Below, one piece after another: positions 5,173 through 57,444 of a stretch of 64,000 nucleotides of DNA. The stretch is from positions 1 to 64,000 of the forward strand of contig NW_024704742.1 of assembly GCF_018977255.1 (NCBI RefSeq), given 5' to 3'. The notes beneath the pieces were generated by a model, which saw only the letters and a program-made list of their open reading frames with translations, had not been told where the DNA came from and ran no database searches. The DNA comes from Callorhinchus milii (Eukaryota). The position numbers were made by a program, and so were the translations under genes. Position 1 is the stretch's first letter; each line of letters starts with the position of its first letter.

Positions 5173-5179
5173 TCCTTGC

Positions 5180-8100: not shown

Positions 8101-8670
8101 TGATGGAGAGAAGGTAAGATTGCAATAGAGTGAAAGTGTGATAGGAGAAAGATTGTGATAGAGAAAAGGAGAAAGATTGCAAAAGAGATAGAGAGGAGAA
8201 AGATTAAGATAGAGAGGAAGAAAGATTGTAACAGAAAAAGTGTGATAAAGAGGAGGAAGATTCTGATAGAGAGAAAGTGTGACAGACGAAAAAGGTTGTA
8301 ATAGAGAGGAGAAAGATTCTGATAGAAAGTGTGATAGAGAGGGCAAAGATTGTAATAGAGAGAAAGTGTAATAGAGAAGCAGAAAAATTGCGATAAAGAA
8401 GAAATGTGAGAGGAGGAAAATTAGGCGAGAGAAAGAGAGCGATAGAGAGAGAAAGTGTGTTAGAGAGGAGAAAGTGCAATAGAGAGAAGGAGAAAGATTC
8501 TGATCGAAAGAGTGATAGAGAGGTGAGAGATTAAAATAGAGCGAAAGTGTGATAGAGAAGAGAAAGTTTGGAATATAGAAGGAAATCATGAAAGATTGTG
8601 ATACGGATGAGAAAGATTGCAATAGAGAGAGAGTGATAGAGGAGAAAGATTTCAATAGAGAGAAAGTGTG
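5180..8670. repeat. Purine-rich (GA) scrambled satellite / low-complexity block 1
   Basis: Reshuffled motifs gatagagagaaagtgt, gagaaagattg(c/t)aatag and gtgttagaaagattggaatag. The + strand is almost devoid of C. Confidence 0.93.
7693..7757 (-). mobile_element. Short L2 LINE 3'-tail insertion inside the satellite
   Basis: acaacaacaagattccattt..gcctttcacgtcaggagaacgtcccaaggcgc matches the L2 3' end at 23550-23620. Confidence 0.8.
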
Positions 8671-8671
8671 A

Positions 8672-8976
8672 TAATAATAATCCTTGCATTTGCTATAGCG
8701 CTTTTCACGTCGGGAGGACGTCCCAAAGCACTTCACAGGACACACTGCAAAGTGAATTGACTGTATATTTGTGGGCAAACGCGGCAGCCAATTGTGCAGA
8801 GCAACGTCCCACAAACAGTTTTGGATTGAAAATGACCAATTTGTTTTTTCGAGGGATTATTATTAGGCTCTGTGTGGAGTAAGGAAACTTGCCCAAGGTT
8901 TCACCCTCTGCCTGGAATTGAACTCGGGTCTCTCACTTGCAAAGCGAGTGCTCTAACCACTGAGCTACAGGACTCT
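8672..8976 (-). mobile_element. Full-length tRNA-derived SINE
   Basis: Reverse complement of the SINE consensus, from the (aat)n tail to gagctacaggactc. Confidence 0.93.
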
Positions 8977-9219
8977 AGTAACCAACCCTGACACCAACTG
9001 ACTCAAACTACACTGAATCTGCCCTGACAAGCTAACTCAATCACCCTCTCAACTAAAACCAACTCTCAACAACTGGACTGAACTCACCCTGACAAATACA
9101 ACTCTCAACCAATCTCAGCATAAACTGACTCAACCAGTCTGAACCGAACCTGACTCGTGGCAGCCACACTGACGACACACAAATTCTCTGATCTCAGATC
9201 AAACTCTTGTAATAGAAGT

Positions 9220-10835
9220 TATCAAATCAAACCTTACACCAATTACAGTGTTGGACTTCAACCTCTGCGATTTATACCAATCTGTACCAATTAATTCTAC
9301 CCTCAACCCAAACTATCACCTCACCATGTTAACTCAGCAACATCTCCCCATCTTGTCCCTCTCAAACCCCAGTCTTTGATACTAACAACTTGTAGTCTCA
9401 ACCTCCAGTGTGAACCAGAGTTTAGCTCATATGTGGTTGGATGTCAGACATCCTGCATGAAGTCCACATAATGTTACCAAACCTCTGGAGTGTGGAAGAG
9501 TGCAAGAGAGAAAGATACAATCTTTGCCATCATCACAGGGTTCCCACTAGCACAGACTTGCCTTACCGAGTCTCAAGAAGCTAGAGAAAGAGAAATAGGG
9601 CATGAGCTTCAGTTGTCACCCTAAGCTTTCCAGGAATTTTCACTTTCCATAGAGTCCAATACGTCTAAGTTAGACACAGCTATAAACTAAAAGACCCTTT
9701 ACCTACATTGAACCAGTCTCAACACTAACCAATTCATGATCTACACTGAACCTGCCCAGACACAAAACAACTCAACACTGAACCAATCTCAGGATAAAAT
9801 GCATTAATAATACAATTCTCTGACATGGATTAACTCCACAACTGCCCTGAACCAACCTCAACAGACACTGACTCCACACCTTGTCACAGTATCTTATCTC
9901 TGGGTGAGAATTACACAATGTTTAAGTGCACTCTGAAAGAGCGATCCTTCTCTTCCCAATTTTGCAGGTTGTGAGGTAGTAACCAATAGAGTAACATTAT
10001 CCCAAAACTCTTACAAGTTCCTGAAATTCAGAGTTTGCATAATTAGTAATGTTAGAGTCAAGTGTCAGTGAAAACTCCAAACCTCAACAATTCTGGCTCA
10101 TCTCCACCTCCTCCCTTTTATACCTCAAATGTGCCAAAGACACTTTTTTTACCCAATCAATCCTGAGCACCTGGGACCCCTCTCTATGATCACAAACATT
10201 CACCTTATTTTGATGAGCCTTTGACTACCTCACAACCTGCACTGAACCAACTTGGACACAAACTAATGATCGACAAGTGCTCCAAACCATCTGTTGCATA
10301 AACTGATGCTCAACCAGTAAACTGAACCTACCTGGACAGACACTGGCTCTGGGCAAACAAAACCAACCTTCACACAGCTATTCGAGATTACCCAAAACCA
10401 AGCAAATTCACTGTCTAATCCGAAGATTAAACAGGTACCATCAAATCTGATTTTACACCATCTAACAAAAGTATATCTTCAATCTCTGATATTCCTACAA
10501 TCTGTGTCGATGAATTAAACCCTCAACCCAAACTGTGAGCTTAACACATTAATCCAGCAAGATCTCCTCCATCCTGTCCCTCTCAAACCCCAGTCTCTTT
10601 TATTAACGACTTCTAATCTCAACCTCCAGTGCGAATCAGAGTTAAGACTCGTATGTTTGGTTGTCAGACATCCTGCATGAAGTCCACACAGTGTTGCCAA
10701 ACCTCTGGAGTGTGGAATAGTGCAGGAAAGAATATACAACCTTTGCCATCATTACAGGGTTCCCACTACAGACTTAACTTACGTACCCTCCTTGAATCCC
10801 AAGGTGCTAGAGAGAGAAACAGGGCATTGGTTTCA
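9220..10835. repeat. Diverged local direct duplication (~9220-9615 vs ~10440-10835) within an A/C-rich degenerate region
   Basis: Shared blocks cctcaacccaaact, tgtccctctcaaaccccagtct, tgtcagacatcctgcatgaagtccaca, aacctctggagtgtggaa and cagggttcccacta. Confidence 0.85.
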
Positions 10836-10884
10836 GTCGACAGTTTTTGGTTCTCATTAGTACAGACTTGGCTTCTGGTGACAA

Positions 10885-11191
10885 TAATAATAACCTTGTA
10901 TTTGATATAGCACTTGTCATGTCTGATGTCTCAAAGCACTTCACAGAACGGACCATAAAGCAAATGGTCTATTTATTTGTGGGCAAAACGCAGCAGCCAA
11001 TTGCACATAGCAGCATCCCACAATCAGTCGTGGATTGAAAATAACCAATTTATTATTGTTTTGTTTTTTGGAGCAATTATTATTAGGCTTGTGGAGTAAG
11101 GAAACTTATCCAAGATTTCACCCTGCCTAGAATTGAACCCAGGTGTCTCACTTGCAAGGCGAGCGCTCTAACCACTGAACTACAGGATTCC
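10885..11191 (-). mobile_element. Older diverged tRNA-derived SINE
   Basis: Tail, Deu-like core and tRNA head (ctctaaccactgaactacaggattcc) on the minus strand. Confidence 0.88.
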
Positions 11192-11454
11192 ACCGAGCAA
11201 CTGAGCTCAGCCCATTAATCACTTATATCTCCCACGGTTTTCAGCTGCATCTCATCTCCAAACGATTCCTAGTTGGACATCTTTGACCAAAATCTAGATG
11301 ATGATTTAAAGACTAACACTGCAAAATAATAATTCTACATAACAATTCTGTCATCGCCATCTCTGAGACGAGTTGGACAATAAAAAAAGCCGGACTGTTC
11401 AAGAGTAGTTTACAATCTCCATTAAATAGATGGATGGCAACAAGGTCTTTAAAG

Positions 11455-12450
11455 TTCAAAGGTTAGAAAACAAAGTGATAAATAACTGAGTTTCTCCAGA
11501 AAGATAAACAGTTTAAGAAAATAAACAAAAATATGAACAAAAACACCATTGGGCACATTGGCAAGTGAGGAGAGTTACCCCAATAAGTGTCTGTGACAAA
11601 TACACATAGTATAAAAATAAAACAAGTTAAAAACACAAATTCAGCTTAAAGCATATGATGTAGTAGCCATTATAGAGACCTGGCTACAAGCCAGAAATTA
11701 CTGGAAGCTAAATATTCCAGGCTGTAAGATCTTCAGAAAGGATAAGGAAATTGGGAAAAGCAATATGGATAATACTGAAGTACACTAGTAGATAGAAAAG
11801 ACTTTAGTAAAGGTGATCAGGCTGTAGAAACACTATGGGTAGAATTAAAGAACAGCAAAGGAGGGAAGACTCTGATGGGAGTTGTCTACAGACTCTAGAG
11901 AGAAACATAACCAATTGTTTTTGAGACAAATTACACAATAAAAGGAGAAGCCAAACTGGCCAAGAGTTGCTTACAATTTATATGAAGAGCAGGTGGACAG
12001 TGCAAATGTCTCTGAAGCTCACAGGGCTGACAACATCCAAGGTTTGGACAACTTCCCTTCACAAACATTACTGACAATTTACAGCCCACCAGAAAGTTCC
12101 CACAAATACAGACTTACTTGATATAGTCCATAGAAAGACCAGCCTGAGCCAAGCGCCACCACACACAAACTGACCATTTCACTGCTCTGAACCACAAACC
12201 TCCAGCAACTTATCTGCTCTCTCTGAGTTGATGAGGTGACTCCTTCCTCCAATTGTTTGACTGAGCTCAGCCTTCGAGTTAAATACCCAAAGGTTCAGGT
12301 TTGACATGTGGCCAATGAGCGAATCACATTCCTCACGAGGTCCAGTTGAAGGTCCTCCCTTCACAGCTGGAAACAGTCAGTATCATCACATGGGCTATTG
12401 GCTATTGGATGGTTCAGAGAATTCACAGGTTTTATATTCATTACTTTAAA
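11455..12450 (+). repeat. ~1 kb direct repeat copy A (paralog of 15805-16810), containing a CR1 endonuclease fragment (~11635-11900)
   Basis: Colinear with 15805-16810 (ttagaaaacaaagtgata ... ggttttatatt). Frame reads QIQLKAYDVVAIIETWLQ..LNIPGCKIFRKD, a CR1-type APE endonuclease N-terminus. Confidence 0.85.
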
Positions 12451-12519
12451 GCATTTACCCTTTTCTAGAATTTCCTATTAAATGCTTCATCAAACACAAC
12501 ATCAAATTACGAACACTAA

Positions 12520-15500
12520 AAGGTGTGAGAAAGAAGGAGAACGATTGCAACAGAGAGAAGGTGTAATAGACAGAGGGTGTGATGGACAAAAGGAGAAAGG
12601 TTGTGATAGAGAGATAGTGTGTTAGAAAGATTGGAATAGAGAGAGAAAGTGTGAAAGAGAGAAGCAGAAACTTTGCGATAGAGAGAGAAAGTGTGTTAGA
12701 AAGATTGGAATAGAGAGACAAAATATCATAGAGAGGAGAATGATTGCAATAGAGAGAAAGTGATAGAGAGAAGAACGATTCTGTTAGGAGAAAGTGTAAT
12801 AGAGAGGAGAGAGATGGCAGTAGAGAGAAAGTCTGATAGAGAAAATGTGATTGAGAAGGAGAAAGTTTGTGACAGAGAGAAAGTGTGATAGAGAGGAGAA
12901 AGATTGTAATCAAAAGGAGAAAAATTGAAATAGAGAGAAAGTGCGGTAAGGAGCAAGATTCTGATAGAGAGAAAGAGTGATAGACAGGGAAAAGGTTGTA
13001 ATAGAGAGAGCAAGTGTGATAGAGAGAAAGCGTGTTAGAAAGAAGGAGAAAGATTCGAATAGAGAGAGACAAAGTACGATAGAGAGCAGAAAGATTGCAT
13101 TAGACAGTGCGATAGAAAAAAAATAATTGTGATAGAGGGAGAGAAAGTGTGAAAGGGAAAATGAGAAAGGTTGCAACAGATACAGAGCAATTGTGACAGA
13201 GAGAAGGAAACAGTTTGCAAAAAAAGGAAATGTGAGAGAGGAGGAAAATCGGGATACAGAAGGAGAAAGATTTTGCGATAGAGAGAAAGTGTGAAAGAGA
13301 GAAGGAAAGATTGCAATAGAAAGTGTGACACAGAAGGAGAATGATTGCAATAGAGAGAAAATGTGATAGAGAAATAGAACGAATTCGATTGAGAGAGAAA
13401 TTGTGTCAGAAAGGAGAAAGATTGTGGTAGAGAGAGAGAAAGTATAATGGAGAGAAGCAGAAAAATTGCAATAAAGAAGAAATGTGAGAGAGAGGAGGAA
13501 AATTGGGCAACAGAAGGAGAGCGATAGAGAGAGAAAGTGTGTTAGAAGGATTGGAATAGAGACAGAGTGTGATATAGATAAGATTGCAATAGAGAAGAGA
13601 GTGTGATAGAGAGCAGAAAGATTGCAATAAAGACAAAGTGTGATAAGTAGAGAAAGTGTGTTAGAAAGGAGAAACATTGCAATGCAGAGAGAGAAAGTGT
13701 GAAAGAGGGGAGAAAGATCGCGATAGAGAGAAAGTGTGATAGAGAGGGAAAAGGTTGTAATAGAGAGGACAAAGATTCTGATAGAGAGGACAGTGATCGC
13801 AATAGAGAGGAGAAAGATTGCAATAGACAGGAACAGTGATAGAGGGGAGAAAGTTTGTAATAGAGAGTGTGGTAAGGAGAAAGATTCTGATAGAGGGAAA
13901 AGGTTGTAATAGAGAGAGCAAGTGTGATAGAGAGAAAGTGTGTTAGAAAGAAGGAGAAACATTGCGATGGTGAGAATGAGAAATATTGTGATAGACAGAA
14001 AGTGAGACAGAGACGGAAAAGGTTGTAATAGAGAAGGTGAAAGATTCTGATAGGAGTGAGAGAGGACAACGTTTGTGATACAGAGAGACAAAGTATGATG
14101 GAGAGAAGGAGAAAGATTGCATTAGAGAGTGAAAGTGTGATAGAGAGGAGAAAGATTGTGATAGAGAAAAGGAGAAAGATTGCGATAGAGAGAAAGTGTA
14201 AAAGAGAGATTCTGATAGAAAGAGTGACAGAGAGGGAAAAGTTTGTAATAGAGAGAGCAAGTGTGACAGAGAGGAGAAATGTTCTAATAGAGAGAATGTG
14301 TGACAGAGATGGAAAAGGTTGTAATAGAGAGGAAAAAGATTCTGATAGAAAGAGTGAAAGAGAGGAGAGAGATTAAAGTAGAAAGTGTGATAGAGAAGAG
14401 AAAGTTTGCAATAGAGAGAAAGTGTGACAGAGAGGAGAAAGATTGCAACAGAGACAAAGTGTGATAGAGAGAAGATTGTAATAGATAGAAAGCGTAAAAG
14501 ATTCTGATAGAAAGAGTGATAGATTGGAGAGATTAAAATAGAGAGAAAGTGTGATAGAGAAGAGAAAGTTTGGAATAGAGGGAAAGTGAAAGAAACACGA
14601 AAGATTATGATACACAGAAAGTGCGACAGAGATGGAAAAGGTTGTAATAGAGAGAAGGCGAAAGATTCTGATAGGAGTGAGAGAGAGGGCAACGCTTGGA
14701 ATAGAGAGAGACAAAGTATGATGGAGAGGAGAAAGATTGCACAAGAGAGAAAGTGTGATAGAGAGAGGAAAGATCGCGATAGATAGAAAGTATGAGAGAG
14801 ATTGCAATAGAGAGAAAGTGTGATAGAGAGGACAAAGATTGCAACAGAGAAAAGTGTGATAGAGAGGAGAAAGATTGCGGTAGAGAGAAAGTGTGACAGA
14901 GGAGAAAGATTGCAACAGAGAAAAAGTGTGATAGAGAGGAGAAAGATTCTGATAGAAAGTGACAGAGATGGAAAAGGTTGTAATAGAGAGGAGAAAGATT
15001 CTGATAGAAATAGTCATAGAGAGGGCAAAGATTTAAGAGAGAGAACGTGTGATAGAGAGGAGAAATATTCTAATGGAGAGAGAAAGTGTATCAGAAAGAA
15101 AGATAATTTTAATAGAGAGACAACGTACGATAGAGAGGATAAACTTTGCAATAGAGAGACAGTTTGATAGAGAGATGGAGAGAAATTCTGATAGAGAGAA
15201 AGTGTGTTAGAATGAAGGAAAAAGACAAACTGTGAAAGAGAGGCAGAAAGATTGTGTTAGAGCGAAAGTGTGATAGAGAGGAGAAACATTACAATAGAGG
15301 AGAAAGATGCGATAAAGTGTGTTAGAAAGATTGGAGAAGAGAGAGAAAGTATGATACAGAGAAGGAAAAAGATTGCAATAGAGAGAAAGTGTGATACAGA
15401 GAAGGAAAGATTGCAATAGAAAGTGTGATACAGAGAAGGAGAAAGATTGCAATGGAGAGAAAGTGTAATAGAGGAGAAAGATTCTAATAGAGAGGGAAAA

Positions 15501-15563
15501 GTTTGTAAGAGAAAGTGTGACAGAAAAGAGGAGAATGATTGTAATAGAGAGTGCGATAGAGAG
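12520..15563. repeat. Purine-rich (GA) scrambled satellite block 2
   Basis: Same motif vocabulary and strand polarity as block 1. Confidence 0.93.
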
Positions 15564-15804
15564 AACCCTGGTCCAGACTGGCCAAGAGTGGTCACAATCT
15601 ACAAGGTCTCCAAAGTTCATTGACATATGGAAATCCAGCTCTCATGTGGTACGAACGAACATTAGCCCAGCGTTCAAGATCAACACAAACCTGCACTGGT
15701 TCCAGGACAACAACAAAATTACATTTATAGAATGCCTTTCATGTCAAGGATGTCCACTAACAACCTCTGACTCAAGTGGAAACAGTAAACTAAAGAAAGA
15801 AGAG

Positions 15805-16810
15805 CAAAGATTAGAAAACAAAGTGATATCAATTTCTCCAGAAAGAAATTTTTTTTAGGAAATAAACAAAAAAAACGAGAAAAACACCATTGGGCCATAT
15901 GGGCAAATGAGGATAGTTATCTTAAGTGTCTATCCACAAGTTCATAGCATAAAAAATAAAACATGTTAGAAACACAAATTCAGCTGAAAGGGTCTGATGT
16001 AGTAGCCATTACAGAGACCTGGCTACAAGCCGGGCATTAGTGGGAGCTAAATATTCCAGGCTGTAAGATCTTTAGAAAGGACAGGAAAATTGGGAAAGGA
16101 GGAAGAGCAATATGGATAACACTCAAGTACAGCAGTAGATAGAAAGGACTTTAGTAAAGTGATCAGGCTGTGGAAACACTATGGGTAGAATTAAGGAACA
16201 GCAAAGCAGGCTCTGGTGGGAGTTGTCTCCAGACTCCAGATAGGAACAAAATAATAGCAATTGTTTTTGAGACACATTATACAATAAAAGGAAAAGCCAA
16301 ACTGGCTAAGGGTTAGTCACAATTTACATCAAGGACAGGTGGACAGTGATAATGTCTCTGAAGCTCACAGGAGACAACACCCAAGGTTTGGACACTTTCC
16401 CTTCACCACTTTAAGGAGAATCAACATTACAGGTAGTTTACAGTCCACCTGAAGGTTCTCACAAATACAGACTTACCTTATATAGTCCATAGAGAGACCA
16501 TCCCGAGCCAATCCACCACACACAAACTGACCATTTCACTGCTCTGAACCACAAGCCTCCAGCAACTCATCTGCTTTCTCTGAGCTGATGAGGTGACTCC
16601 TTCCTCCGACGGTTGGGCTGTTACTGCGCTCAGCCTCTGGGTTAAATACCCAAAGGTCAGTTCTATCATGTGGCCAATAAAGGAATCCCATTCCTCACAA
16701 GGTCCAGTTGATCTACTCTTCACAGCTGTAACCAGTATCAGCACATGGGTTTCTTTGCTATTGACTGGTTCACAGACTTCACATGGTTTTATATTGATTA
16801 GTTTACAATA
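15805..16810 (+). repeat. ~1 kb direct repeat copy B (paralog of 11455-12450), with CR1 endonuclease fragment (~15970-16240)
   Basis: gatgtagtagccattacagagacctggctacaagcc..ctaaatattccaggctgtaagatc, followed by colinear similarity to copy A. Confidence 0.85.
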
Positions 16811-18879
16811 ATCACACAATTTTCTATTGATTCGTTTAGCGAATCAGCTGCTGGTTCAGAGATTTACCGATTCAGTTTTCTTGCTTATGTTTTGTTTTGC
16901 CTGCAAAACACAAACAGTCACCACACTTTACAGCATGTCCTCTGAAACGCTTTGAGATATCTCAATGACGTGATCAGGCTCTGGGTCAAACGCCACGATT
17001 ATTATTATGATTTGAACCCCAACCCTTATCACAGCTGTTGGTCAAAGCCACTCGGTTCAGCTTCTGCCTCCGTTTAAATAAACAGCTGGTTTCCAATAAC
17101 ATTCCTGGTTTGGGGCAGAATCATAGAATTATACAGCACAGGAGGCTGCCATTCAAGCCAAATAGGCCAACCCCATTCTCTCCCCATAGCACCCCCAAAA
17201 AGAAACCAACTCTCGGTCCTGAATCAACACAACTGAAGCTTCAAGTATCTACATGTTTATATGTTGAACCAGGTTGGGCAGATGATTTTTTCACCTGTTT
17301 CAGCACATCCGGTAGAAAAGGTACCTTTCTATACCTGCACCATAGCCCAGACTGTCTGGTGGCCAATCATGTCATTGATATTACCTGCTGAGTGCCTGAT
17401 TTACAGGTTAACCCTTTCCTACACTAACAGGATGCTACACCGGGGGTTGTGTGTGTGGCTGTGTGTATGGCTCAGGTCAGCTCCTCCACACCTCAGGCAC
17501 TGACAGCATCACCATTCAGGGATGCACACTCCACCTCACTGAGCCGGTCCAGAACCTTGGCGTCTTGTTTAACCCGCAACTGTCCTTTCGACCCCACATC
17601 CGTGCATGTTCCATGCGTGTGACAAGCCTCCAAACATAGTCTCCCCCCTGGACACAGGTCCCACACACACAGACCCCGAACCACATAAACATGTTCTGAC
17701 TCCAAATCAATGAGTTTAAACTGGTCTGGACAGAAGCAGACAGTCGGTTCGTATCCCACATCTCAATATAATCAATGTTTCACACAGCATTGACGAGCCG
17801 GGCTCAGCTGCAAGAGCTACAACCTAGAAAATAATAATAAACTTTGAAATGTAATGAGTAACAATAATCTGCAATTATATAGCGCCCCTCGCGCAGGGCA
17901 GAGTCCTAGAGCGCTTGGTGGAACAAAATAAAGTGCAGCACCGCCCGCCATCACTGCAGAGTGGATTATTCACTGAGAAGCTGTTTGTAGGATGTGGTGT
18001 GAATCAGCTGCTAAAAAACACAAATAACTGCACCCTAAGTTACAGAAAAGTGTGTGTGTGCGTGGGGGGGTGCTGTGCTCTGCATGTGTGTAACAACCAA
18101 CTATCTTTCTGCCTCAACCCCAGGACCACTGCTTTCCTGACAGAATGATTGTGCTCTGGGCCTCGCTGGTGCACTTGCTGATTGTTTCCTCATGTGTGTG
18201 AGCTGCTGTTAGATGTGTTGCTACAGAAGATGACAATGAAGAATCCTTTGTGAGATTTATTAAGCAAAATGAAGAGTTTTCATGAGAGTAAAGCCACCAG
18301 TAGACAATTGGAAGCGCGTTTGAGCAATAATTAGTGTGAGCTCTGGGCCTGAGGTAAGTCTCACCACTTCAGTCTGATCCCATCACCAATTAAACATTTT
18401 CACTTTCAATACCACCAGGATTAAAATCACACAAGTGCCACTGGAGTCTCGGCAGAATTAGGAAGAGATCCTAGAGAAAAAGTCCACATAGAGGAAAGAA
18501 ATTTAATCTCCTGGATTTACAACTAAAGTAGGCGGTGATGGTATCTGGTTCTGTCTGTTTCAGAAATAGTGTGCTCACTGCTCACTGGTGATTGTTTCTT
18601 CGGACTTTGTGCTTGATGACTCTGGAATTTCTATGCACAAAGTAACAAAAGTATTTAAACCTGCAAAAGATCGAGACAATAGGGTTAAGGGCTTTAATTC
18701 CTAATACTACAATCCTCTTTGCATCTGATCCAGTGACTTTGTCTCAAAGTATTTCACAGGAAATTGCTACCAAGTGTAGTAACAGTGTATTTGGAGAAAA
18801 GCCCGATGTTGCAGAGGAAGCTTTGTGTGGAGAGCAGCCGGATCGGTATGAGTTGAGATGGCACAGGTGGGAGGGGACA

Positions 18880-19620
18880 AGATAGTGCCTCCACACCTCA
18901 GGCATTGGCAGCATCCAGGGATGCACACTCTATCTCGCTGAACCAGTCCGGAACTCTCCCATCTTGTTTGACCCTTGTCAAATTGTCCTTTCTACCCCTC
19001 ATCCATGCCGTGACCCGCTCTGCCTTCCCCATCTCCACAACATCGCACGGTTCCTCCAACATCTCTCCCATCAGGCTGCTGAAACCTTCATCCATCCATT
19101 CACCACATATTTGGGTGTCATCTGCATATATATGGAAGATAACCCCATGTCTGTAGAAGACATCACCGAGCGGGAGCATGTAGATATTAAAGAGGACTGA
19201 GGACAGAGCCCTGAAGTAACTGTGAAAGGGTAGGCAAAGTTGGGATGTGTAAGCGTGAAACCAGGAGAGGACCAAACTGTGAAGGTGGAGTTGAGAGGTG
19301 AGGTGGTGTAAAAGGATAGTGGTTGACAACATTGAAGCCTGGAGAGAGATCAAGGAGTACAAGAAGATACAGAGAGCCCTGGTTACAGATAAGAATGAGG
19401 AGAGAATGTTGTTGGCAGGTTAGAGGTGGGATGGTAATTAAGGAAGGGATTTTTGTGAAGAGGGGGTGACAGCAGATTCAAATGAAGTGGGAACTGCACA
19501 AGTGGACATGGAGAGATTGATAACATCTGTTAGCAGACGGCAAGGCAATAGAGCTGGGAGATCAGGAGAGGAGGCGGGTGGGTATGAGGGAGCAAGCACC
19601 GAGCAGGATTCATGTGGGAA
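18880..19620. mobile_element. Degraded L2 LINE fragments (+ strand ~18880-19105, - strand ~19105-19620)
   Basis: Minus frame LFNIYMLPLGDVFYRHGVIFHIYADDTQI is the RT YADD motif. The plus piece resembles the L2 RT C-terminal region. Confidence 0.8.
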
Positions 19621-19892
19621 GAAAATAGGAACAATACAAGAATCCTTAATTTTGATACAACAGCAAACCACCCGATACTAATCAATGTCTAATATCCAAC
19701 CAGCAGCCATGAGGTCAATTTTTTATGTACTTATGTTTTTATGTCTCCTCCTTCCAGGACACAGTTTTCATTAAGCACCAGCTTCTAATAAGCAACTTTG
19801 ACAGAAATCTGTCCTTTACAGAATGATTTATTGGATTTAAGCCCCTCGCTTTATTGATTTTTTTGCGGCTAACAATTCATTTAACTAATTAC

Positions 19893-19938
19893 CTTCAGTA
19901 GCAGCAGGTTTAGATATGGTCTTTGACGTCTTTGCTTT
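19893..19938 (-). CDS. RTF2: RTF2-like internal exon (KAKTSKTISKPAATE, phase 0->1), orphan fragment
   Basis: cctgttttgcag|AAA GCA AAG ... GAA G|gtaatt, 46 nt. Resembles RTF2 KTKKPKAAESVSKPDVSE (recalled human sequence) and follows the 22173-22286 exon in phase. Confidence 0.7.
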
Positions 19939-20159
19939 CTGCAAAACAGGAAAATAATGAATATGTGAATAATATGCAGCCACAATCTGCAACCTGGGGT
20001 GAGAAATAAGAAAATAAGAATTTGCTAGGCAAAAAAAAACCAAGATCCATCTATGTCGCCTTCCACCATCCTGGCAGTCACTTGACATCTTGTGTCCTAA
20101 ATTATATACGGTATTCTGACAGGTCTTAGATTTCAAAAATTGAAAACATCCGTATGGCT

Positions 20160-21675
20160 GCATCCTCCTTCCACCCCAACAATGTCCCCTTCCACCTCAA
20201 CCAGATCATCCACACCGCCTTCTCCCTCCGCCACGGCTCCTGCCACTCCTAAACCCCCATTTCTCCCTCCTCCCTCTCAACTACAATCACCCACATAAAA
20301 CACTGGAACACATTGTTGCAGTGAACTTTGATCACACCTCTCCCTCCACTTCCTCCTCGAGCCCCTCCAGTCTGATTTTTGTCCTGACTGCCCATAGCAC
20401 AGAGATAGTGCCTATCAAAGTCACAAACGACTTCCCATCCTCTCTATCTGTGATCAGGGTTCCTCTGCCTCCTCGTCCTCCTGGATCTCTCTCTTTGACA
20501 CAGTTGACCACACCATCCTCCTCTACCGCCTCTCCTCCCTCATCCACCTTAGTGTACCATGCTCCCATGGCTTGATTCCTACTTAACCATCCGTCTCCAT
20601 TTCATTTCGGCAAATGGTTTCTCCACCCGGTCACTTGCGGGATACACCAGGGCTCCATTCTTAGCCCCCTTCTTTTCCTAATCTATCTGCTCCCTCTGGG
20701 TGATGTCACCTGCAGACACGGGGTAAACTTCCACATGTATGCGGAGGGCACACAAATCTACTTTTCCTCCTCCAGTATCGACTCCAGATCCGCTGATGTG
20801 CTATCAGCTTGTCTGGCAAACATCAGGGCCTGGATGAGTGCAAACTTCCTGCAGCTGAATGTGGACAAGACGGAAGCCATACTCCTCGGCCCCTGTCAAA
20901 GTCTTTATTCCTACAGATCTAAACTCCTCAACCTCTCTGGACTCTCCCTCAGACTCATCGAACCGTGCGCAATCCATGCCTCTGGTTCGAACCCCAGCTG
21001 TCCTTCCTTGCCCACATCTAGTCCCTGACCAGGACCGCCTTCCTCCACCTCCACCACATTACCCGTCTCCGACCGTACATTACCCCAAATGCAGCCAAAA
21101 CCCTCGTGCATGCGTTTGTCACCTCCGGCCTGGATTACTCCAACGCACTTCTCGCCGGTCTCCCAGCTCCACCATTCACAAGATCAGCTCGTGCAAAACT
21201 CTGCCGCCCGCATACTGACCCTGACCAAACTCCGTCCCCATATCTCACCAGTTCTGGCCCAGGCTCCACTAGCTCCCCATCACCGTACGGATTGACTTCA
21301 AGATCTTCACTCTCGTGTTCAAATTGCTCCACTCTCTGGCACCTCCCTACCTCTACGACCTCTTCACTTCCTAATCCACCACCCGGCGCCTCCGCTTGAC
21401 TGGCACCGGCCTCCTGCTTGTCCCTCGCACCCTCTGCCCCACCATCGGAGGTCACGCTTTCAGCCACTACGCCCCCAAACTTTGGAACATTCTCCCTCAA
21501 TCCATCCGCCTTGCCCCTCTCTCCCCCTTTTCAAGTCCCACCTGAAAACCTTCCTTTTCGACCATGATTACGGTCACCTCCACCACCCCACACCGGAGTT
21601 CAGCTCCGCCATTGTTAAGCGCTGTGAGATGCTGCCCTGTATGGAGGGCGCTATACAAGTACAAGTTGTTGTTGT
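20160..21675 (+). mobile_element. L2-clade LINE, 5'-truncated, degenerate RT and 3' end
   Basis: QGSILSPLLFLIYLLPLGDV..HGVNFHMYAEGTQIYF..WMSANFLQLNVDKTE; HAFVTSGLDYSNALLAG; LVQNSAARILT; ends gcgctatacaagtacaa(gtt)n. Confidence 0.92.
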
Positions 21676-22172
21676 TTGAATTATGGAAGTGCCCCGAGGG
21701 TTTGGGACGATCGTTTTTGGTCTTGTGCATATTATTAGGATTCAGTTGATTTATACTCCTTGAATCTTAACCTTTTGCCCAAGTTCAAAGTGAAGGGACA
21801 ATATATATATATCTCTTCACAAACACACAAACACAGTAAAACTCACACAAGTCTGATCTTTATAAATCGTGTAAACGACCAAAACGTACATTCACTCACC
21901 AGAGTTCCATTCAGTTTCTTATCAAAACCACTTGGTTGTATTAATCACCTCCTAACTTGGAACTCCGTGTCCCTACCCTCTATTCCTTCTACACTTAGCG
22001 GCTGCATTGAATTACTCATGCACAGTATAGATTATTGATTAAATTAGGTTTTATACTATTTATACAGTTTGCCTGGAAATCGGACGTCAGTTAAGTTATC
22101 TAAATGACTTTGGGTCCCAAAATGTTTGGGTCCCAAATTATACACCTTGTGTGAAGTTTACTGCGCAGTTAC

Positions 22173-22286
22173 CCTCTCCAGCTTGGCTTTCAATTTCCGT
22201 TCCTCCACTCTTCTCTTAAGAATTTCCATTTCTTCTTTACTCCCATTCAGGAAAATCACATCATCTCTTTGGAAGGGTTCTCTGCA
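22173..22286 (-). CDS. RTF2: RTF2 (replication termination factor 2)-like internal exon CREPFQRDDVIFLNGSKEEMEILKRRVEERKLKAKLER, orphan fragment
   Basis: tttgtctgcag|TGC ... AGG|gtaact, 114 nt, phase 0-0. Matches recalled human RTF2 CGAAFQEDDVIVLNGTKEDVDVLKTRMEERRLRAKLEK. Confidence 0.88.
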
Positions 22287-22736
22287 CTGCAGACAAAGAG
22301 AAAATAATTAAAATTTACCAAATTAAGACTGACTAATCCAGAAAATTCCACATCATGTGGACTAATAAACAGACATTTTCAACAGTTCACTCTAAGATCT
22401 TCATATTCTACAGAGAAAGCTAATAAATATGACCATTGTTTATCCAACTCAAGTTCTATTAACAATAATCTATGCATTTGATATATCACATTATGATGTC
22501 AGAACATCTCAAAGTGCGTCACGGGGTTTATTATAAAGCGTAGTGACTGACTATTGGGGGCAAACACAGCAGCCAATTTGACCGCAGCAATATCCCACAC
22601 ACAACCAAGAAGTGAGTGACCAATTTTATTTGGGGGATTGTTGGCCAGGACACAATTTCTTCCTTCTTGCTTTTGCTTTCAGTTTGCTTATGAAAGACAG
22701 GTATGTATACCTGTATACAGTATTTTCCAATGAATG

Positions 22737-23100
22737 GAGTCCTGTAGCTCAGTGGTTAGAGCACTCACAAGCGAGAGACCCGGGTTCGATTCCCCCGGCA
22801 GGGCAAAATGTTTGGTAGGTTTCCTTGCTCCACGCTTCTGTTTACCGAGCAGTAAGTTGGAACCTGGTTGTAGTCGAGTAGCGGATCGCTTTTCGGGGGT
22901 TAATAATTCCTTCAAAAATAAATAATAAATTGGTCACTCAATCAACAACTGTTTGTGGTACACTGATGTGTGCAATTAGCTATCGTATTTCGCCCACAAA
23001 ATGTACAATTAATTCACTTTACTGTATATTCTGTGAAACGCTTCGAGATGTCTCGAAGACGTGATAAGGCGCTATATCAAATGCAAGGATTATTATTATA
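22737..23100 (+). mobile_element. tRNA-derived SINE (longer, older subfamily), antisense in the TPX2 3' region
   Basis: ggagtcctgtagctcagtggttagagcactc..gggttcgattccc, Deu core, and aaatgcaaggattattatt tail. Confidence 0.9.
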
Positions 23101-23205
23101 AATATTAAAACAGGTTAAAGTAGAGCTTATGGTACTTGTCAAAGAAATTGTGACAGTTTCAAATACTTGAGTTTCCAGATAAGAACAGAAAGACAAACAG
23201 GCGCG

Positions 23206-23316
23206 TTACAGACGAAACCTATCGGAAACGTTTGGGGTGGTTGGAACGGTAAGCTGTTGCTCGCTGGGCTGAATTTCGACTTTCTTGTAATGACGGACAG
23301 AGTTTGCTTTGTGTAT
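23206..23316 (-). CDS. TPX2: TPX2 terminal exon IHKANSVRHYKKVEIQPSEQQLTVPTTPNVSDRFRL*
   Basis: tctctgcag|ATA..., stop TAA at 23208-23206, 111 nt. Homologous to the TPX2 C-terminus VHKANPIRKY..LTVPVSPKFSTRF. Confidence 0.92.
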   Translation of the reverse strand: MHKANSVRHYKKVEIQPSEQQLTVPTTPNVSDRFRL

Positions 23317-25353: not shown

Positions 25354-25541
25354 CTTGTCATGACGAAGTTGTGCAATTTCTTTTCTCTCTTGCTCCTCTT
25401 TTCGATTCTGCTTTTCCTGTTCTGCCTGCTCTCGCATCACCTCTTTATCAGCTTTGTACTTCTCAAATTCCATACGTTCTTTTGCTCTCTTCTCAGTTGC
25501 CGGCTCAAAGCTTTCCTGAAATACAGAAACAGAAAGCTTCT
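25354..25541 (-). CDS. TPX2: TPX2 exon (E)KLSVSVFQESFEPATEKRAKERMEFEK...EIAQLRHDK
   Basis: ccaacttag|AG ... AAG|gtaagt, 188 nt, phase 1->0. Confidence 0.9.
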
Positions 25542-26019: not shown

Positions 26020-26131
26020 CTGTCAGTGATCGCTCTGCTTTCTTTGGCATGAATGGCTCTCGGCAAATAGCAGAGCTGGGGTTGGCTTTAAAACATGCAG
26101 CTTCCTTTTGTTGCCTGAGCTCTTCTTTCAT
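26020..26131 (-). CDS. TPX2: TPX2 exon MKEELRQQKEAACFKANPSSAICREPFMPKKAERSLT
   Basis: ttgaatag|ATG ... ACA G|gtattg, 112 nt, phase 0->1. Confidence 0.93.
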
Positions 26132-26711: not shown

Positions 26712-26858
26712 CATCTGCGTCCAGCGTTCTGCTTGAACAACCCCTCTCTCTTCTATGCGTAGATGGAAAGGCTGGAGTTTAGTTGGAGACTTCACCACCT
26801 TCTCTGGTAACTGAGCCAAGTCAAAGTCAGGAAGTGGCTGCGCTTTAAATGTAGGGAC
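26712..26858 (-). CDS. TPX2: TPX2 exon VPTFKAQPLPDFDLAQLPEKVVKSPTKLQPFHLRIEERGVVQAERWTQM
   Basis: ttgtatag|GTC ... ATG|gtaagc, 147 nt, phase 0-0. Confidence 0.93.
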
Positions 26859-27269: not shown

Positions 27270-27867
27270 GAATAATCCTTGCATTTGATATAGCAATTTA
27301 TCACGTTTTCAAGACTTCTCATAGTACTTTACAGAATATACTGTAAAGTGAATTGACTGTATAATTGGTGGGCAAAACGCAGAAACCAATCGCGCACAGT
27401 AGTCACATAAACAGTTGTGCATTGAGCGACAATTAAAAAAAATTTCTTGAAGGAATTATTAACTCCAGAAAAGTGATCTACCAATCGGCTAACAACCGGG
27501 TTCTTACTTGCTGCTAGGTAAACAGTTTTGCTAGGATAATAATAATAATAATAATAATAATCTTTGCATTTGATATAGCGCTTTTCACGCCGGGAGGACA
27601 TCCCAAAGCGCTTCACAGAACACACTGTAAAGTGAATTGACTGTATATTTGTGGGCGAACGCGGCAGCCAATTGCGCACAGCAATGTCCCACAAACAGTC
27701 GTAGATTGAAAATGACCAATTTATTATTGTTTTTGGTTTTTTGGAGGGATTATTATTAGGCTCTGTGGAGTAAGGAAACTTGCCCAAGGTTTCGCCCTCT
27801 GCCTGGAATTGAACTCAGGTCTCTCGTTTGCAAAGCGAGTGCTCTAACCACTGAGCTACAGGACTCC
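27270..27867 (-). mobile_element. Young SINE (27537-27867) abutting an older SINE (27270-27530) in a TPX2 intron
   Basis: Two aataatcc/tttgcatttgatatagc tails and Deu cores; full tRNA head at 27800-27867. Confidence 0.9.
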
Positions 27868-27905
27868 AGGATGGCTAAACTGGTGAGAAAGTTGACCACA
27901 CTTAC

Positions 27906-28088
27906 CTCAGCCATCTCTTTACGGATTTCTTGCAGTTTCTTTTCCTTCAGTGTTTGCCTCTCGTTGTCCTGAGCCTCAAATGAGAATGGCTGTATTTCTA
28001 CATTCTTCTCTTCCAGGGGTTTTGGCTTGAATGGGACGGCACAGTGTGGCATAGTGTTTATCTTAATCTGCTTTACTAGCTTTTCTTC
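27906..28088 (-). CDS. TPX2: TPX2 exon EEKLVKQIKINTMPHCAVPFKPK...QPFSFEAQDNERQTLKEKKLQEIRKEMAE
   Basis: acttgtag|GAA ... GAG|gtaagt, 183 nt, phase 0-0. Confidence 0.93.
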
Positions 28089-28264
28089 CTACAAGTTTAA
28101 TAGAAAGAAGCACTTTGATGTTATGGTACATGAAGCAAATTAAATAAGTGAAAGCTGTTTGCTGCACCAGCATGGATTATAATCATAAAAATAGGCTCTT
28201 TCCCAGTCATCCTCTAGTCACAACCTCAGGATTATTTTTCCAGAAGCGTGTCACAGCACCCTAC

Positions 28265-28360
28265 CTGCTCCTCTTTAAGTGGAATTCTTGTACGGCTTTT
28301 CACTGCAAAAACTGGAGAATGAGGCACTGTCAATGGTAGCTTACTCTTTTCTGGAACTCC
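28265..28360 (-). CDS. TPX2: TPX2 exon GVPEKSKLPLTVPHSPVFAVKSRTRIPLKEEQ
   Basis: ttttcttccag|GGA ... CAG|gtaggg, 96 nt, phase 0-0. Confidence 0.93.
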
Positions 28361-28482
28361 CTGGAAGAAAATCTAGTCAATTTTTAGGATATTAAAAAAA
28401 ATTACAACTAAATGCATGTCTCTTGAATAATAGAAACAATAGCTCCTATTCTGCAATGCATCTCAGCTCATAATATCCTCAC

Positions 28483-28694
28483 CACAACATCTTCCAGCAT
28501 CCGGATGGGGCACGGACAGGGATGGAAAAAGTACTGCTCCTGATCCTCGGGCTTGCGATTTTCTTCCCGCTTCCTGATACGATTGTCGGTCTCCAAGCGA
28601 AAGCCAATAAGCTCTGTGGGTTCGTTCACCGGTGGCTTCTCTGGGACCACCTTCCAGGATTCTGGGGTTTAGTTCTTGAGCTTTGAATCTGTAA
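28483..28694 (-). pseudogene. TPX2: TPX2 exon with internal frameshift: YRFKAQELNPRILEGGP/ /EKPPVNEPTELIGFRLETDNRI...PCPIRMLEDVV
   Basis: gcttcag|T TAC AGA ... GGT CCC A GAG AAG ... GTG|gtgagg. The two TPX2-like halves lie in different frames, consistent with a ~8-nt (3n+2) deletion relative to GGPILPKKPP. Confidence 0.88.
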
Positions 28695-29561
28695 CTGAAG
28701 CAGCAGCAATGACCAAAATCAGTGCTTTAGAAAACTACAGAAGTTACTCAAGTGATTGAAACCTCAGGAAGCAAACCTGGAAACCAAACCATTCACTTCT
28801 AACCAAAGAATTGGTATATTAATAAGTAATTTTTAACCTTTCTTTAGCGCTTTTGTATTGGAAAGATAGACATGAGAGCATACAGAAAATTGTATATCTA
28901 TAACTATGTTAAATTTCAATATTCCTAGAGTCCTGCGCACTTGCCTTGCAAAAAAGTCGCTCAATCCATGACTGTTTGTAGGACATTGCGCAATTGGCTG
29001 ATGCATTTCATCCACAAAATATGCAGTCAATCCACTTTACAATTTATTCTGTGAAATGTTTCAAGACATCTCAACAACATGATGGAAGCTGTATATCAAA
29101 TGCAAGGATTATTACTAGCACTTCCTGCCATGGCAAATCATACCCATCCGTATGCGTATATATATTAATAATCGGTTAAGTCAGCTAAAACGTGTCAATT
29201 GAACAATACTGATGTTCAAAACTGAGACTGGGAGCCGCACAGAAAATCAATAACCGATTGAGAATTATGGGTACATTAGCAATTTCTGAAAGCCTTTACA
29301 AATCATCACCATCTGACAGTGGAGCTCATGGCACCACATCGCCAACAGTTGGCATTTAAAAGCAAGAAAATTGACAAACTAAACTTTATGCATGTTCTAG
29401 AATATAGCAATGAACATAAAAAAGGCTTCAATGGTGCACGTTGGAAAAAAAATAAAACTTTATAGTGAAATGTTGAAACCCACTCACAAATTTATGGTCT
29501 TGTCATGGCTATTTTTGTAAACAGACCCCTGCACCAGTAAGTTCCATAAATAGCCACAAGG

Positions 29562-30017
29562 TGGAGCTCAGTGGTTAGAGCACTCGCTTTGCAAGCGAGA
29601 GACCTGAGTTCAATTCCAGGCAGAGGGCGAAACCTCGGGCAAGTTTCCTTACTCCACACAGAGCCTAATAATAATCCCTCCAAAACCCCAAACAATAATA
29701 AATTGGTCATTTTCAATCTACGACTGTTTGTGGGACATTGCTGTGTGCAATTGGCTGCCGCGTTCGCCCACAAATATACAGTCAATTCACTTTACAGTGT
29801 GTTCTGTGAAGCGCTTTGGGACGTCCTCCCGACGTGAAAAGCGCTATATCAAATGCAAGGATTATTATTATTATTATTATTGCTGTGCGCAATTGGCTGC
29901 CGCGTTCGCCCACAAATATACAGTCAATTCACTTTACAGTGTGTTCTGTGAAGCGCTTTGGGACGTCCTCCCGACGTGAAAAGCGCTATATCAAATGCAA
30001 GGATTATTATTATTATT
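29562..30017 (+). mobile_element. Young SINE with tandem duplication of its 3' half
   Basis: tgctgtg(t/c)gcaattggctgcc...gcaagg(att)n occurs twice in a row (~29739-29880 and ~29881-30017). Confidence 0.93.
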
Positions 30018-30576
30018 AAGGTGGATGACAAATGGTTGAGAATTGTTGCCAGCATCCAGGGAAAAGCCCTCTGCTGTTTTCCAATAGTGTCATGGATTAT
30101 AACTATGTTATGATACAGACTCCAGCATTGCATTGGAGTGACAGCACCAAGTAGAAGCTCAATTCCTGACATGGCTGAAGAGGAGAAATGAGACTATCCA
30201 AGTGACAGTACAAGAGTTTCCTGGATGCTAATAAGCTGTCTTTAGAAAGATATCTGAATTGTATAGAGTACATTATAGCCTAAAGGACTCCCACTCTAGA
30301 TTAGAGGAAAGCAATTCCTTCATCATCAAGGAGCCAATTAGTGTCACATTAACAGTGATTCAGCAGTATGAATGGTTCTACTGACATGTCACTTTTGAAC
30401 ATTCAATAAGGTTGGGCCGAGCTAGTCAATGTCACTCGTGACTCTCCCGCGCCCCCTCCCCTCCATTCAGCTGGTGGATCCTGCAATGACAGACTAGCAT
30501 AGTTTTATAACCACAGAGCTGAAGATATGGTGGCAATCATACAAACAACACCGAGTTTGGTTGAAATCCCATTTAC

Positions 30577-30754
30577 CTTCTTCCACAAGTTGCTTGCTTC
30601 TCAAATGATAATGTGATGGTGTGCGACGTTGAAATTCTTCCACCTGCTGTGCAACAGAGACATATGCTTTGCTCTCCATGTCTGTATGTTTTCTTTTACT
30701 CCCACAAGATAGGTGGAAAGGCTTCAGTACAGTACTTCCCTTCAGTGCACACAT
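30577..30754 (-). CDS. TPX2: 5'-most detectable TPX2 exon [59 protein letters not shown]
   Basis: ccattccag|ATG ... GAA G|gtaaat, 178 nt, phase 0->1. Contains the KRKH importin-alpha motif. Confidence 0.92.
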
Positions 30755-30833
30755 CTGGAATGGTAAGCTGTCAACATTACTACAGAAATTGTGCATATTT
30801 GGAAATTAAATGTTTTGGTATATTAGTATTTTT

Positions 30834-53926: not shown

Positions 53927-54284
53927 AACTTAAAGGGATGCTACGTATATTACTAACGATTTAAGGTTCAGATAATATGGTAACGAGCCGTTCCTCACAC
54001 ACTGTAAAGTGAATTGACTGTATATTTGTGGGCGAACGCGGCAGCCAATTGCGCACAGCAATGTCCCACAAACAGTCGTAGATTGAAAATGACCAATTTA
54101 TTATTGTTTTTGGTTTTTTGGAGGGATTATTATTAGGCTCTGTGTGGAGTAAGGAAACTTGCCCAAGGTTTCGCCCTCTGCCTGGAATTGAACTCAGGTC
54201 TCTCGTTTGCAAAGCGAGTGCTCTAACCACTGAGCTACAGGACTCCAGGATGGCTAAACTGGTGAGAAAGTTGACCACACTTAC

Positions 54285-57169: not shown

Positions 57170-57444
57170 CTGGAATGGTAAGCTGTCAACATTACTACAG
57201 AAATTGTGCATATTTGGAAATTAAATGTTTTGGTATATTAGTATTTTTGGAGTCCTGTAGCTCAGTGGTCGGAGCACTCGCCTCACAAGCGAGAGACCTG
57301 GGTTCGATTCCCGGCAGGGCAAAATCTTGTGCAAGTCTCCTTATTCCACGTGCCTGATAAGAATCCCGCAAGAAAAAATTAAATAAAAAGTTTGTCACTC
57401 AATTCACGACTGTTTGTGGGACACTGCTATGCACAATTGGAAGA

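Follow-up and report, generated by a model that had tools for sequence, protein, structure and literature searches.

Partial segmental duplication yields unprocessed pseudogenes, for example in the chromosome-end duplicons of human and yeast. A frame broken by one lesion may also be restored by a second, and human IRGM is an example of such a 'resurrected' gene. The start of scaffold C1 of Callorhinchus milii (NW_024704742.1, positions 1 to 64,000; this whole 64,000-nt stretch is referred to as the window) carries a partial copy of TPX2 which, like the IRGM-type cases, contains two frame-breaking events that sum to a multiple of three. We assign a probability of about 0.9 to the reading that window positions 23100-31033 (minus strand) are an unprocessed, truncated TPX2 pseudogene at the inner edge of a chromosome-end duplicated block.

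Extent of the TPX2 copy and of the duplicated block

The intact parent gene, TPX2 (targeting protein for Xklp2), is located at C18:15090632-15108413 and comprises 16 coding exons, which translate exactly to the C. milii TPX2 of 743 aa (P0001, isoform X1). According to blastn, the partial, intron-containing copy is colinear with C18:15101398-15108519 in eight blocks of 93-97% identity, introns included, and exon-by-exon protein matches together with blastn placed exons 8 and 10-16 of TPX2 within it (Table 1). Homology on the 5' side begins in parental intron 7. In a protein search, residues 1-278 and 343-393 of P0001 had no match anywhere on C1; the N-terminal Aurora-A-binding region (parental exons 1-2; PF09041) is missing, and the KRKH motif is retained in exon 8, as the first-pass annotation had stated on both counts. 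Exon lengths are parental with the exception of exon 10, and AG/GT is kept at all eight exons (exon 16 ends at the stop), with 14 of 14 splice dinucleotides intact. The parental residue is encoded by 368 of the 391 codons compared. Exon 12 shares 97% identity with C. milii TPX2 isoform X1, and the exon 8 homolog differs from the parent by 6 substitutions. The C-terminal TPX2 domain (PF06886) matched the translation of exon 15 with 32.6 bits (cut-off 25), and the translations of exons 8 and 12 taken alone gave no Pfam match. Homology to the parental 3'UTR stops at 23100, approximately 30 nt short of the parental AATAAA. The SINE-like insert in former intron 8 is 96-97% identical to a repeat copy at C18:15097792-15098103. 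Among C. milii protein models of 408-1301 aa, only P0001 and P0002 matched TPX2, and models of 30-407 aa included no close match to the copy (best 58% identical); the collection searched therefore holds no model of it. A literature search on TPX2 in Callorhinchus returned nothing relevant, as judged from titles and the opening of abstracts.

Table 1. Coordinates of the TPX2 copy, its lesions and neighboring features in the window.
Feature	Positions	Strand	Details
Exon 8 homolog	30577..30754	-	178 nt; AG/GT flanks; starts with ATG (parental Met288) in phase 0; ends in phase 1
SINE-like repeat insertion, two partial tandem copies	29562..30014	-	former intron 8; not in parent there
Exon-9 deletion junction	29418..29420	-	lost: exon 9 (136 nt), 30 nt upstream, 217 nt downstream
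Exon 10 homolog	28483..28694	-	212 nt vs 220 nt in parent; normal acceptor intact
Premature TAA	28669..28671	-	shifted frame after direct exon 8-exon 10 splicing; codon 68; reads ...VEEVTDSKLKN-stop
Internal CAG, proposed cryptic acceptor	28662..28664	-	AG at 28663-28662; exon start 28661
Exon 11 homolog	28265..28360	-	96 nt
Exon 12 homolog	27906..28088	-	183 nt
SINE-like insertion	27550..27868	-	former intron 12; 26-kb repeated unit begins inside, at 27620
Exon 13 homolog	26712..26858	-	147 nt
Exon 14 homolog	26020..26131	-	112 nt
Exon 15 homolog	25354..25541	-	188 nt; Pfam PF06886 match, E 7.5e-8
Exon 16 homolog	23206..23316	-	111 nt; normal stop
Distal part of duplicated block: flank, purine-rich repeats, 548-bp satellite	1..23107	.	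colinear with C18:15119161-15143443 and C3:99053100-99081571
Second TPX2 copy, exons 8 and 10-12	53997..57498	-	98.8-99.8% identical; exon 8 at 56992-57169, exon 10 at 54861-55072

Window positions 1-31033 are colinear, in inverted orientation, with C18:15101398-15143443 and with C3:99048634-99081571. The shared block spans at least 40 kb and occurs at three scaffold ends, at the start of C1 and at the ends of C3 and C18, with the intact TPX2 on C18; the TPX2 copy forms its inner edge. All three ends share the order TPX2 3' part, flank, purine-rich repeats and 548-bp satellite, oriented toward the end, and the distances of the three TPX2 sequences from the scaffold ends are 23-31, 36 and 53 kb. 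Neither the window nor the last 72 kb of C18 nor the last 51 kb of C3 contained runs of at least four TTAGGG/CCCTAA units. The term 'subtelomeric' is thus inferred from scaffold position only, as the scaffolds may stop short of the telomere and a pericentromeric end is possible. The colinearity suggests that copying began inside TPX2, so that the copies would have lacked the promoter and the first exons from the outset. Among 11 flanking ORFs scanned against Pfam, the sole match was a reverse-transcriptase fragment at 20576-21025.

A second TPX2 copy begins just past an N gap at 53897-53926 and contains the same two lesions as the first, plus a 1-nt deletion in exon 12. Copy-type contigs of sequencing run X11 showed depths of ~12-16 inside the 26-kb repeat and ~11-15 outside it, where depth is not a measure of copy number. 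The 26-kb repeat across the gap at the start of this largest scaffold is probably an overlap or a false duplication. The first copy might likewise be taken for a mis-assembly or haplotypic variant of the real TPX2 with no separate locus, given the position of the window at a scaffold end next to satellite and its partial repetition across the gap. However, the copy differs from C18 by ~3% substitutions, several repeat insertions and two private deletions, tens of kb of its distal flank align colinearly with C3 and C18, and contigs of other runs show the 8-nt deletion described below and bridge the exon-9 junction, all of which makes an assembly artefact extremely improbable.

Order of the two lesions and consequences for the reading frame

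The first-pass annotation had reported that the exon ending at 30577 closes in phase 1, that the next acceptor lies at 28694 and that an intervening 3n+1 exon could not be found. All three statements hold, and the missing exon is parental exon 9 (136 nt, 3n+1; residues 347-392), which was removed by a 383-bp deletion corresponding to C18:15102622-15103004. The junction sequence was detected only at C1:29330-29500 and C1:55756-55926, and its two halves are 383 bp apart on C18 and 403 bp apart on C3. Furthermore, exon 10 of the copy contains the 3n+2 deletion that had been noted directly after the GGP codons, at about 28644; it measures 8 nt and is reproduced in an X11 contig over 28550-29000, which is without the 8 letters. 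The C3 copy shares this deletion and its flanking substitutions exactly, keeps exon 9 (with 7 extra nt) and has further lesions of its own, GTG in place of ATG in exon 8 and the loss of 10 nt from exon 10. Because the C3 copy has the 8-nt deletion yet retains exon 9, the frameshift is older than the loss of exon 9.

Since the C1 and C3 copies share the exon 10 mutation, it was present in their ancestor, in which a small complex change, the 8-nt deletion plus four nearby substitutions, put the copy out of frame. The C1 copy alone later lost exon 9, whereby the downstream frame returned by chance, with a TAA left in the stretch of 24 shifted codons that separates the lesions; drift since then appears to have been neutral. 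The two events together remove 136 + 8 = 144 nt, a multiple of three. Internal parental exons of 3n+1 length number 5 of 14, such that about one exon loss in three would cancel the 8-nt deletion, and the frame match is unremarkable. A coincidental match had been suggested beforehand, with odds of about 1 in 2 for a frameshifting indel, and is upheld.

Direct splicing of exon 8 to exon 10 leads into VTDSKLKN and the TAA, in agreement with the first-pass reading. No protein would be expected from the copy, as parent-like splicing would end the frame at codon 68, within the second exon of eight. Under the 50-nt rule, an mRNA with such an early stop is a substrate of nonsense-mediated decay, and an mRNA of the copy would presumably be one. 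The uninterrupted frame and conserved splice pattern of the TPX2 family (Pfam PF06886, PF12214, PF09041) are not found here, with exon 9 deleted, exon 10 shorter by 8 nt and the stop at codon 68. No further stop or frameshift occurs within the 1176 nt compared. In simulations with 20-34 random substitutions, the probability of no stop was 0.25-0.43; the absence of stops is therefore weak evidence for function.

A different outcome would follow if exon 10 began at 28661, just past the internal CAG. The join of 178+179+96+183+147+112+188+111 = 1194 nt contains an open frame of 397 codons followed by the normal stop, exactly as previously calculated, and an example of a peptide unique to the copy would run from ...LVEE into SWKVVPEKPPVNEP. 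The locus could on this basis be a salvaged paralog with a new upstream start and an exon 8 to 28661 splice, encoding a 397-aa TPX2 that lacks the Aurora-A-binding N-terminus and retains the importin-binding and microtubule/kinesin-5 parts, a reading compatible with the other intact splice sites, the parental exon lengths and KRKH. However, the frameshift preceded the exon loss, so the reading frame had already been lost in this lineage. The normal acceptor is strong and remains intact, whereas the internal CAG is weak and identical in sequence in the parent: its pyrimidine tract (8/20), rightly described as poor in the first-pass annotation, is below those of all 15 parental acceptors (10 to 16), compared with 14/20 at 28694. 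Parental mRNA uses the upstream acceptor, as shown by record 17 of X2 and record 19 of X3, spliced contigs in which the exon-10 segment ends at 28694. In addition, the second, nearly identical copy has the 1-nt frameshift in exon 12. The arithmetic behind the proposed intact protein is thus correct, and the salvage that it was taken to permit is unsupported, with the frameshift having come first and the CAG being unchanged.

Constraint and evidence bearing on expression

Comparison of the copy with full-length TPX2, which had been recommended in the first-pass annotation, yielded 24 nonsynonymous and 10 synonymous differences over 391 codons (Nei-Gojobori). The resulting dN/dS of 0.64 does not differ from neutral (binomial p 0.29; small numbers), and a pairwise value below 1 is expected because the parent, one of the two lineages compared, is constrained. 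Among the 23 replacements, 21 are derived in the copy, the parent having the majority residue of 18 outgroup TPX2 proteins; the copy matches the outgroups in none, and 2 are ambiguous. Positions invariant in the 18 outgroups (110 of the 391) received 8 of the 23 replacements, with 6.5 expected. In these alignments the copy's replacements do not avoid invariant sites, as purifying selection on conserved residues would have them do. Substitution divergence was similar in exons (34/1227, 2.77%) and non-exon sequence (192/5338, 3.60%; Fisher p 0.16). Overall, the substitutions in the copy look neutral, and both the chance-rate replacement of invariant residues and the similar divergence argue against a salvaged paralog. 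In favor of salvage, there was 1 indel event in exons versus 26 in aligned non-exon sequence, where 6.0 exonic indels would be expected at an equal rate (P of at most 1 = 0.018) and 3.0 if only the copy's lineage were free to change (P = 0.20). This shortage could hint at some constraint, or may simply reflect indel-prone intron sequence.

Signals for expression are likewise missing. No CpG island was found upstream of the copy (CpG observed/expected at most 0.58 across 30.5-38 kb), and the parental AATAAA, exons 1-7 and any promoter are absent, which with the lack of an upstream exon also counts against salvage. Contigs from sequencing runs were compared with the window; none of the 14 runs listed is recorded as RNA, which is only a guess for X1-X10, and X1 may include DNA, whereas X11 is DNA-like. 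These are not raw RNA reads but assembled contigs, in which rare variants are dropped and depth is not an expression level. The joints 30577 to 28694 and 30577 to 28661 were absent from the 15 joints listed, beyond which the contigs of X1, X2, X3 and X11 have 1753 more, a result silent on expression; X1 has almost no cover over exon 10. Where contigs over the copy carried other letters, these were the C18 letters at 39 of the 40 places listed. The spliced contigs listed have parental letters. At 28641 they contain 8 letters more than the window, and 134 further letters, corresponding to exon 9, separate exon 8 from exon 10.

Copy-type sequence was nonetheless present in X1. Record 6 (29150-29475) crosses the exon-9 junction without a gap at a depth of 10.6, and record 5 (28061-28289), over intron sequence, has window letters at 28211 and 28243. 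Furthermore, window-type letters occur at five sites in exons 14-15 (25488, 25502, 26050, 26060 and 26064) at a depth of ~44 versus 52 parental, in a total of 96.5. They sit inside otherwise parental spliced TPX2 contigs, and among them are changes predicted to produce Y630C and L658P. These letters also count in favor of a salvaged paralog. Over exons 8, 12 and 16, however, X1 contigs have parental letters only, and with this and the evidence above, salvage is judged very improbable. Both the exon 14-15 letters and the intron-sequence contigs could instead reflect a transcribed pseudogene with no protein, in which read-through from neighboring repeats and parent-like splicing would give a substrate of nonsense-mediated decay or a non-coding RNA, and which may act as donor or recipient in gene conversion. 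Parental-letter clusters in copy-type contigs of X11 (23203-23229, 29272-29303 and 30393-30436) do resemble conversion tracts. On the other hand, DNA may be present in X1, whose RNA origin is only a guess, and depth in these contigs does not measure expression. The two variants in exons 14-15 together also reach the depth of neighboring exons with parental letters only (99.6 and 107.6), a pattern better matched by a heterozygous parent allele than by a second transcript. A transcribed pseudogene therefore appears improbable. The broader proposition that the TPX2 fragment is not inert, through either interlocus gene conversion with the functional gene or transcription of its own, is somewhat less so, although still unlikely. 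A pseudogene with a coincidental frame match, one of the two interpretations offered in the first-pass annotation, is supported by the order of the lesions, the neutral-looking substitutions and the missing signals.

Significance and comparison with known systems

The locus matters little beyond annotation, where the open join of 397 codons could be mistaken for a truncated TPX2 paralog. The comparison of three copies identifies the TPX2 copy as a by-product of a chromosome-end duplication that cut through TPX2, and provides a worked example of how a lesion common to a sister copy orders two "compensating" defects. Wider interest is confined to the possible exchange of sequence between pseudogene and working TPX2; if conversion is real, a dead copy would be a source of damaging variants for a spindle gene that is essential, and this in living animals.

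The copy resembles its C. milii parent in exons 8 and 10-16, introns, KRKH and the C-terminal PF06886 domain. Unlike the parent, it is without exons 1-7 (PF09041), exon 9 and the parental poly(A) signal, and contains the 8-nt frameshift and the premature TAA. In contrast to the IRGM-type cases, it has a stop between the two lesions, no sign of renewed constraint and, among the protein models searched, no copy-specific product. It differs from the chromosome-end duplicons of human and yeast in that the three scaffold ends gave no (TTAGGG)n. In other respects it is consistent with them, being a DNA-level copy with introns that is cut at the duplicon boundary and found on several ends with satellites, and, as in such duplicon pseudogenes, it accumulates indels and repeat insertions.

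Structure of the TPX2 copy and its parent gene

A protein search of the whole genome (a vertebrate genome of ~991 Mb, with the window covering the initial 64 kb of contig C1, which is 139 Mb long) recovered TPX2 complete on contig C18 and as partial exon sets on C1 (twice) and C3. The 743-aa C. milii TPX2 protein P0001 shared 97% identity with the translation of window 27906-28088 (-). Exon lengths in the first-pass annotation agree with those of the parent gene on C18, where exon 8 (178 nt) opens on a phase-0 ATG and closes in phase 1, exons 9 and 10 measure 136 and 220 nt, and exons 11-16 measure 96, 183, 147, 112, 188, and 111 nt.

Exons and introns of the window copy alike align colinearly with the parent, in eight blocks (93-97% identity) broken up by three SINE-like insertions. 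A 383-bp segment with exon 9 (C18:15102622-15103004) is gone, leaving a clean junction at window 29420/29418 that is present only in the two C1 copies, and exon 10 lacks 8 nt directly past the GGP codons. AG/GT and parental lengths are kept in all remaining exons. When exon 8 is spliced directly to 28694, the normal acceptor, the product reads ...VEEVTDSKLKN* and stops at codon 68; a join at 28661 produces a frame of 1194 nt (397 codons followed by the normal stop). The frame match after exon loss is unremarkable, since a length of 3n+1 is found in 5 of 14 internal exons of the parent. The join at 28661 had been taken as a cryptic acceptor that could salvage a paralog; it is not a new feature, as the parent carries the same ...AACCCCAG|AATCC. 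Its pyrimidine tract is indeed poor (8/20, compared with 14/20 at the intact normal acceptor and 10-16 at 15 parental acceptors).

Homology to the parent starts in intron 7, and residues 1-278 of P0001 had no match on C1 in the protein search. The 7 kb upstream of the copy carries repeat-derived frames, and no CpG island was found there; in-frame stops lie directly upstream of the exon-8 ATG. Homology at the 3' side ends ~30 nt short of the parental AATAAA, with a SINE-like repeat instead. No protein model of the copy came up in either search of the protein collection, and a literature search, judged by titles and abstract openings, turned up nothing on TPX2 duplicates in C. milii.

Locations of the TPX2 sequences, the repeated unit, and the chromosome-end features
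Feature	Location	Strand	Remarks
Parent TPX2	C18:15090632-15108413		16 coding exons, solved exactly against P0001
Window copy	window 31033-23100	-	exons 8 and 10-16; colinear with C18:15101398-15108519
C3 copy	C3:99046822-99051574		exons 6, 8, 9, 10, 11; loci L010, L023, L030, L034
26.3-kb unit	window 27620-53896; C1:53997-80710		~99.5% identity between units
LINE-type remnant	20576-21025	+	flanks window copy
LINE-type remnant	31720-33235	+	flanks window copy
LINE-type remnant	37064-37861	-	flanks window copy
Chromosome-end block	window 1-23107; C18:15119161-15143443; C3:99053100-99081571		window colinear with the others, inverted
Satellite	window 1-5172; C18:15136655-15143736; C3:99071131-99081571		tandem, ~548 bp; 92-94% identity
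Repetitive region	window 5200-15500		common to C18 and C3 ends
Open frame	5709-7730	-	674 codons

Order of lesions and constraint on the copy

The C3 fragment is more decayed than the window copy. It carries the 8-nt deletion and nearby substitutions identical to those of the window copy, and exon 9 is still present, with 7 additional nt. Its own lesions comprise a change of the exon 8 ATG to GTG, a 10-nt deletion in exon 10, loss of the donor at exon 11, deletion of exon 7, and a short tandem repeat, resembling one at C18:15109359-15109908, in place of exons 12-16. Two shared substitutions alter lysine sites (K413E, K418N); with lysine found at each site in the outgroups, the altered states are derived. 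Since the 8-nt lesion is common to C1 and C3 and exon 9 is kept in C3, the frameshift arose in a common ancestor that still had exon 9; the window-copy lineage was already out of frame when exon 9 was lost on C1. At the 2490 sites where all three sequences could be aligned, private changes amounted to 1.49% in the window copy, 2.93% in C3, and 1.41% in C18 plus the shared stem.

Across 391 comparable codons, the window copy differs from the parent by 24 nonsynonymous and 10 synonymous changes (dN/dS 0.64; p 0.29, binomial test against neutral expectation). From among 120 matches listed, 19 TPX2 sequences were picked, 18 of them serving as outgroups (sharks, rays, coelacanth, sturgeon, turtle, and chicken). 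Of the 23 replaced positions, 21 have the outgroup-majority residue in the parent and none has it in the copy (2 ambiguous), so the replacements arose on the copy's lineage. Eight of the 23 (R335H, K413E, K418N, I460M, R537Q, L658P, P713S, F737V) fall at positions invariant in 18/18 outgroups, with 6.5 expected (110/391 invariant); by this comparison the copy does not avoid replacements at conserved sites. Substitution divergence was 34/1227 (2.77%) in exons and 192/5338 (3.60%) elsewhere (p 0.16). One indel event fell in exons versus 26 outside; the probability of at most one exonic indel is 0.018 at equal rates and 0.20 with the parent's own constraint allowed for, and the chance of no further stops is 0.25-0.43. 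The few exonic indels and lack of further stops offer weak evidence for constraint.

The second copy lies in a 26.3-kb unit repeated directly across the only N gap (53897-53926). It comprises exons 8 and 10-12, shares both lesions with the first copy, and differs from it at 24 positions over 27620-31083. Its exon 12 has a further frameshift, a 1-nt deletion in the A4 run at the exon start (54457-54460), not in the first copy. Overlaps that were left uncollapsed commonly look like this, with the two halves of a repeat abutting a gap; a contig overlap of that kind or a haplotype copy is the probable explanation, with a true tandem duplication possible.

The window copy is an ordinary unprocessed pseudogene of TPX2. 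The first-pass annotation's observation stands, and its pseudogene reading with a coincidental frame match is supported; its alternative of a salvaged paralog is not supported.

Chromosome-end context

All three TPX2 sequences are oriented toward their scaffold ends. Distances to these ends are 53 kb for the parent (measured from its end; C18, 15,161,263 bp), 36 kb for the C3 copy (C3, 99,087,298 bp), and 23-31 kb for the window copy, which is near the C1 start. The three ends share the order flank, purine-rich repeat region, 548-bp satellite. No telomere repeats were found, so "subtelomeric" here denotes scaffold position only. Most economically, a chromosome-end block would have been copied from a C18-type end to other ends, with its inner breakpoint within TPX2, such that the copies would be truncated from birth.

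Approximately 10.6 kb just 3' of the parental gene (~C18:15108519-15119161) has no counterpart in the copies on C1 and C3; it was either inserted in C18 or deleted from the ancestral copy. Each satellite unit contains a ~319-bp SINE-like element. The adjoining repetitive region is strongly strand-skewed (G- and A-rich), and its long frames, which had no Pfam match, are probably open by composition. One of the LINE-type remnants matches the reverse-transcriptase Pfam RVT_1 (E 1.3e-8).

Read contigs and possible exchange with the parent

Read evidence came from Logan contigs, with no run on record as RNA; X1-X3 are guessed to be RNA and X11 is DNA-like. Long spliced contigs (X2 record 17, 1276 nt; X3 record 19, 2352 nt) show 8 additional letters at 28641, and X3 record 19 has 134 letters between exons 8 and 10, corresponding to exon 9. 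The differing letters are those of C18 at 39 of 40 listed places, identifying these contigs as parental transcripts; their exon-10 piece stops at 28694, hence the parent splices at the upstream acceptor. The 8 letters are absent from an X11 contig spanning 28550-29000, and the exon-9 junction is bridged by X1 record 6, indicating that the lesions are not errors of this assembly, with the caveat that X11 might be its source.

In X1, within spliced TPX2 contigs that are otherwise parental, ~44 of a total depth of 96.5 comes from window letters at 25488, 25502, 26050, 26060, and 26064 (exons 14-15), and the two variants together match the depth of neighbouring exons (99.6, 107.6). Exons 8, 12, and 16 show parental letters only. 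A heterozygous mosaic parent allele may fit these letters better than a transcript of the copy. Copy-type contigs of X11 read parental letters in small clusters (23203-23229, 29272-29303, 30393-30436), which suggests either that the copy is polymorphic or that the parent has converted it. Gene conversion involving both loci would fit the X1 letters and the X11 clusters alike. The interest of the window copy is mainly one of annotation, together with possible sequence exchange with the working TPX2 gene.
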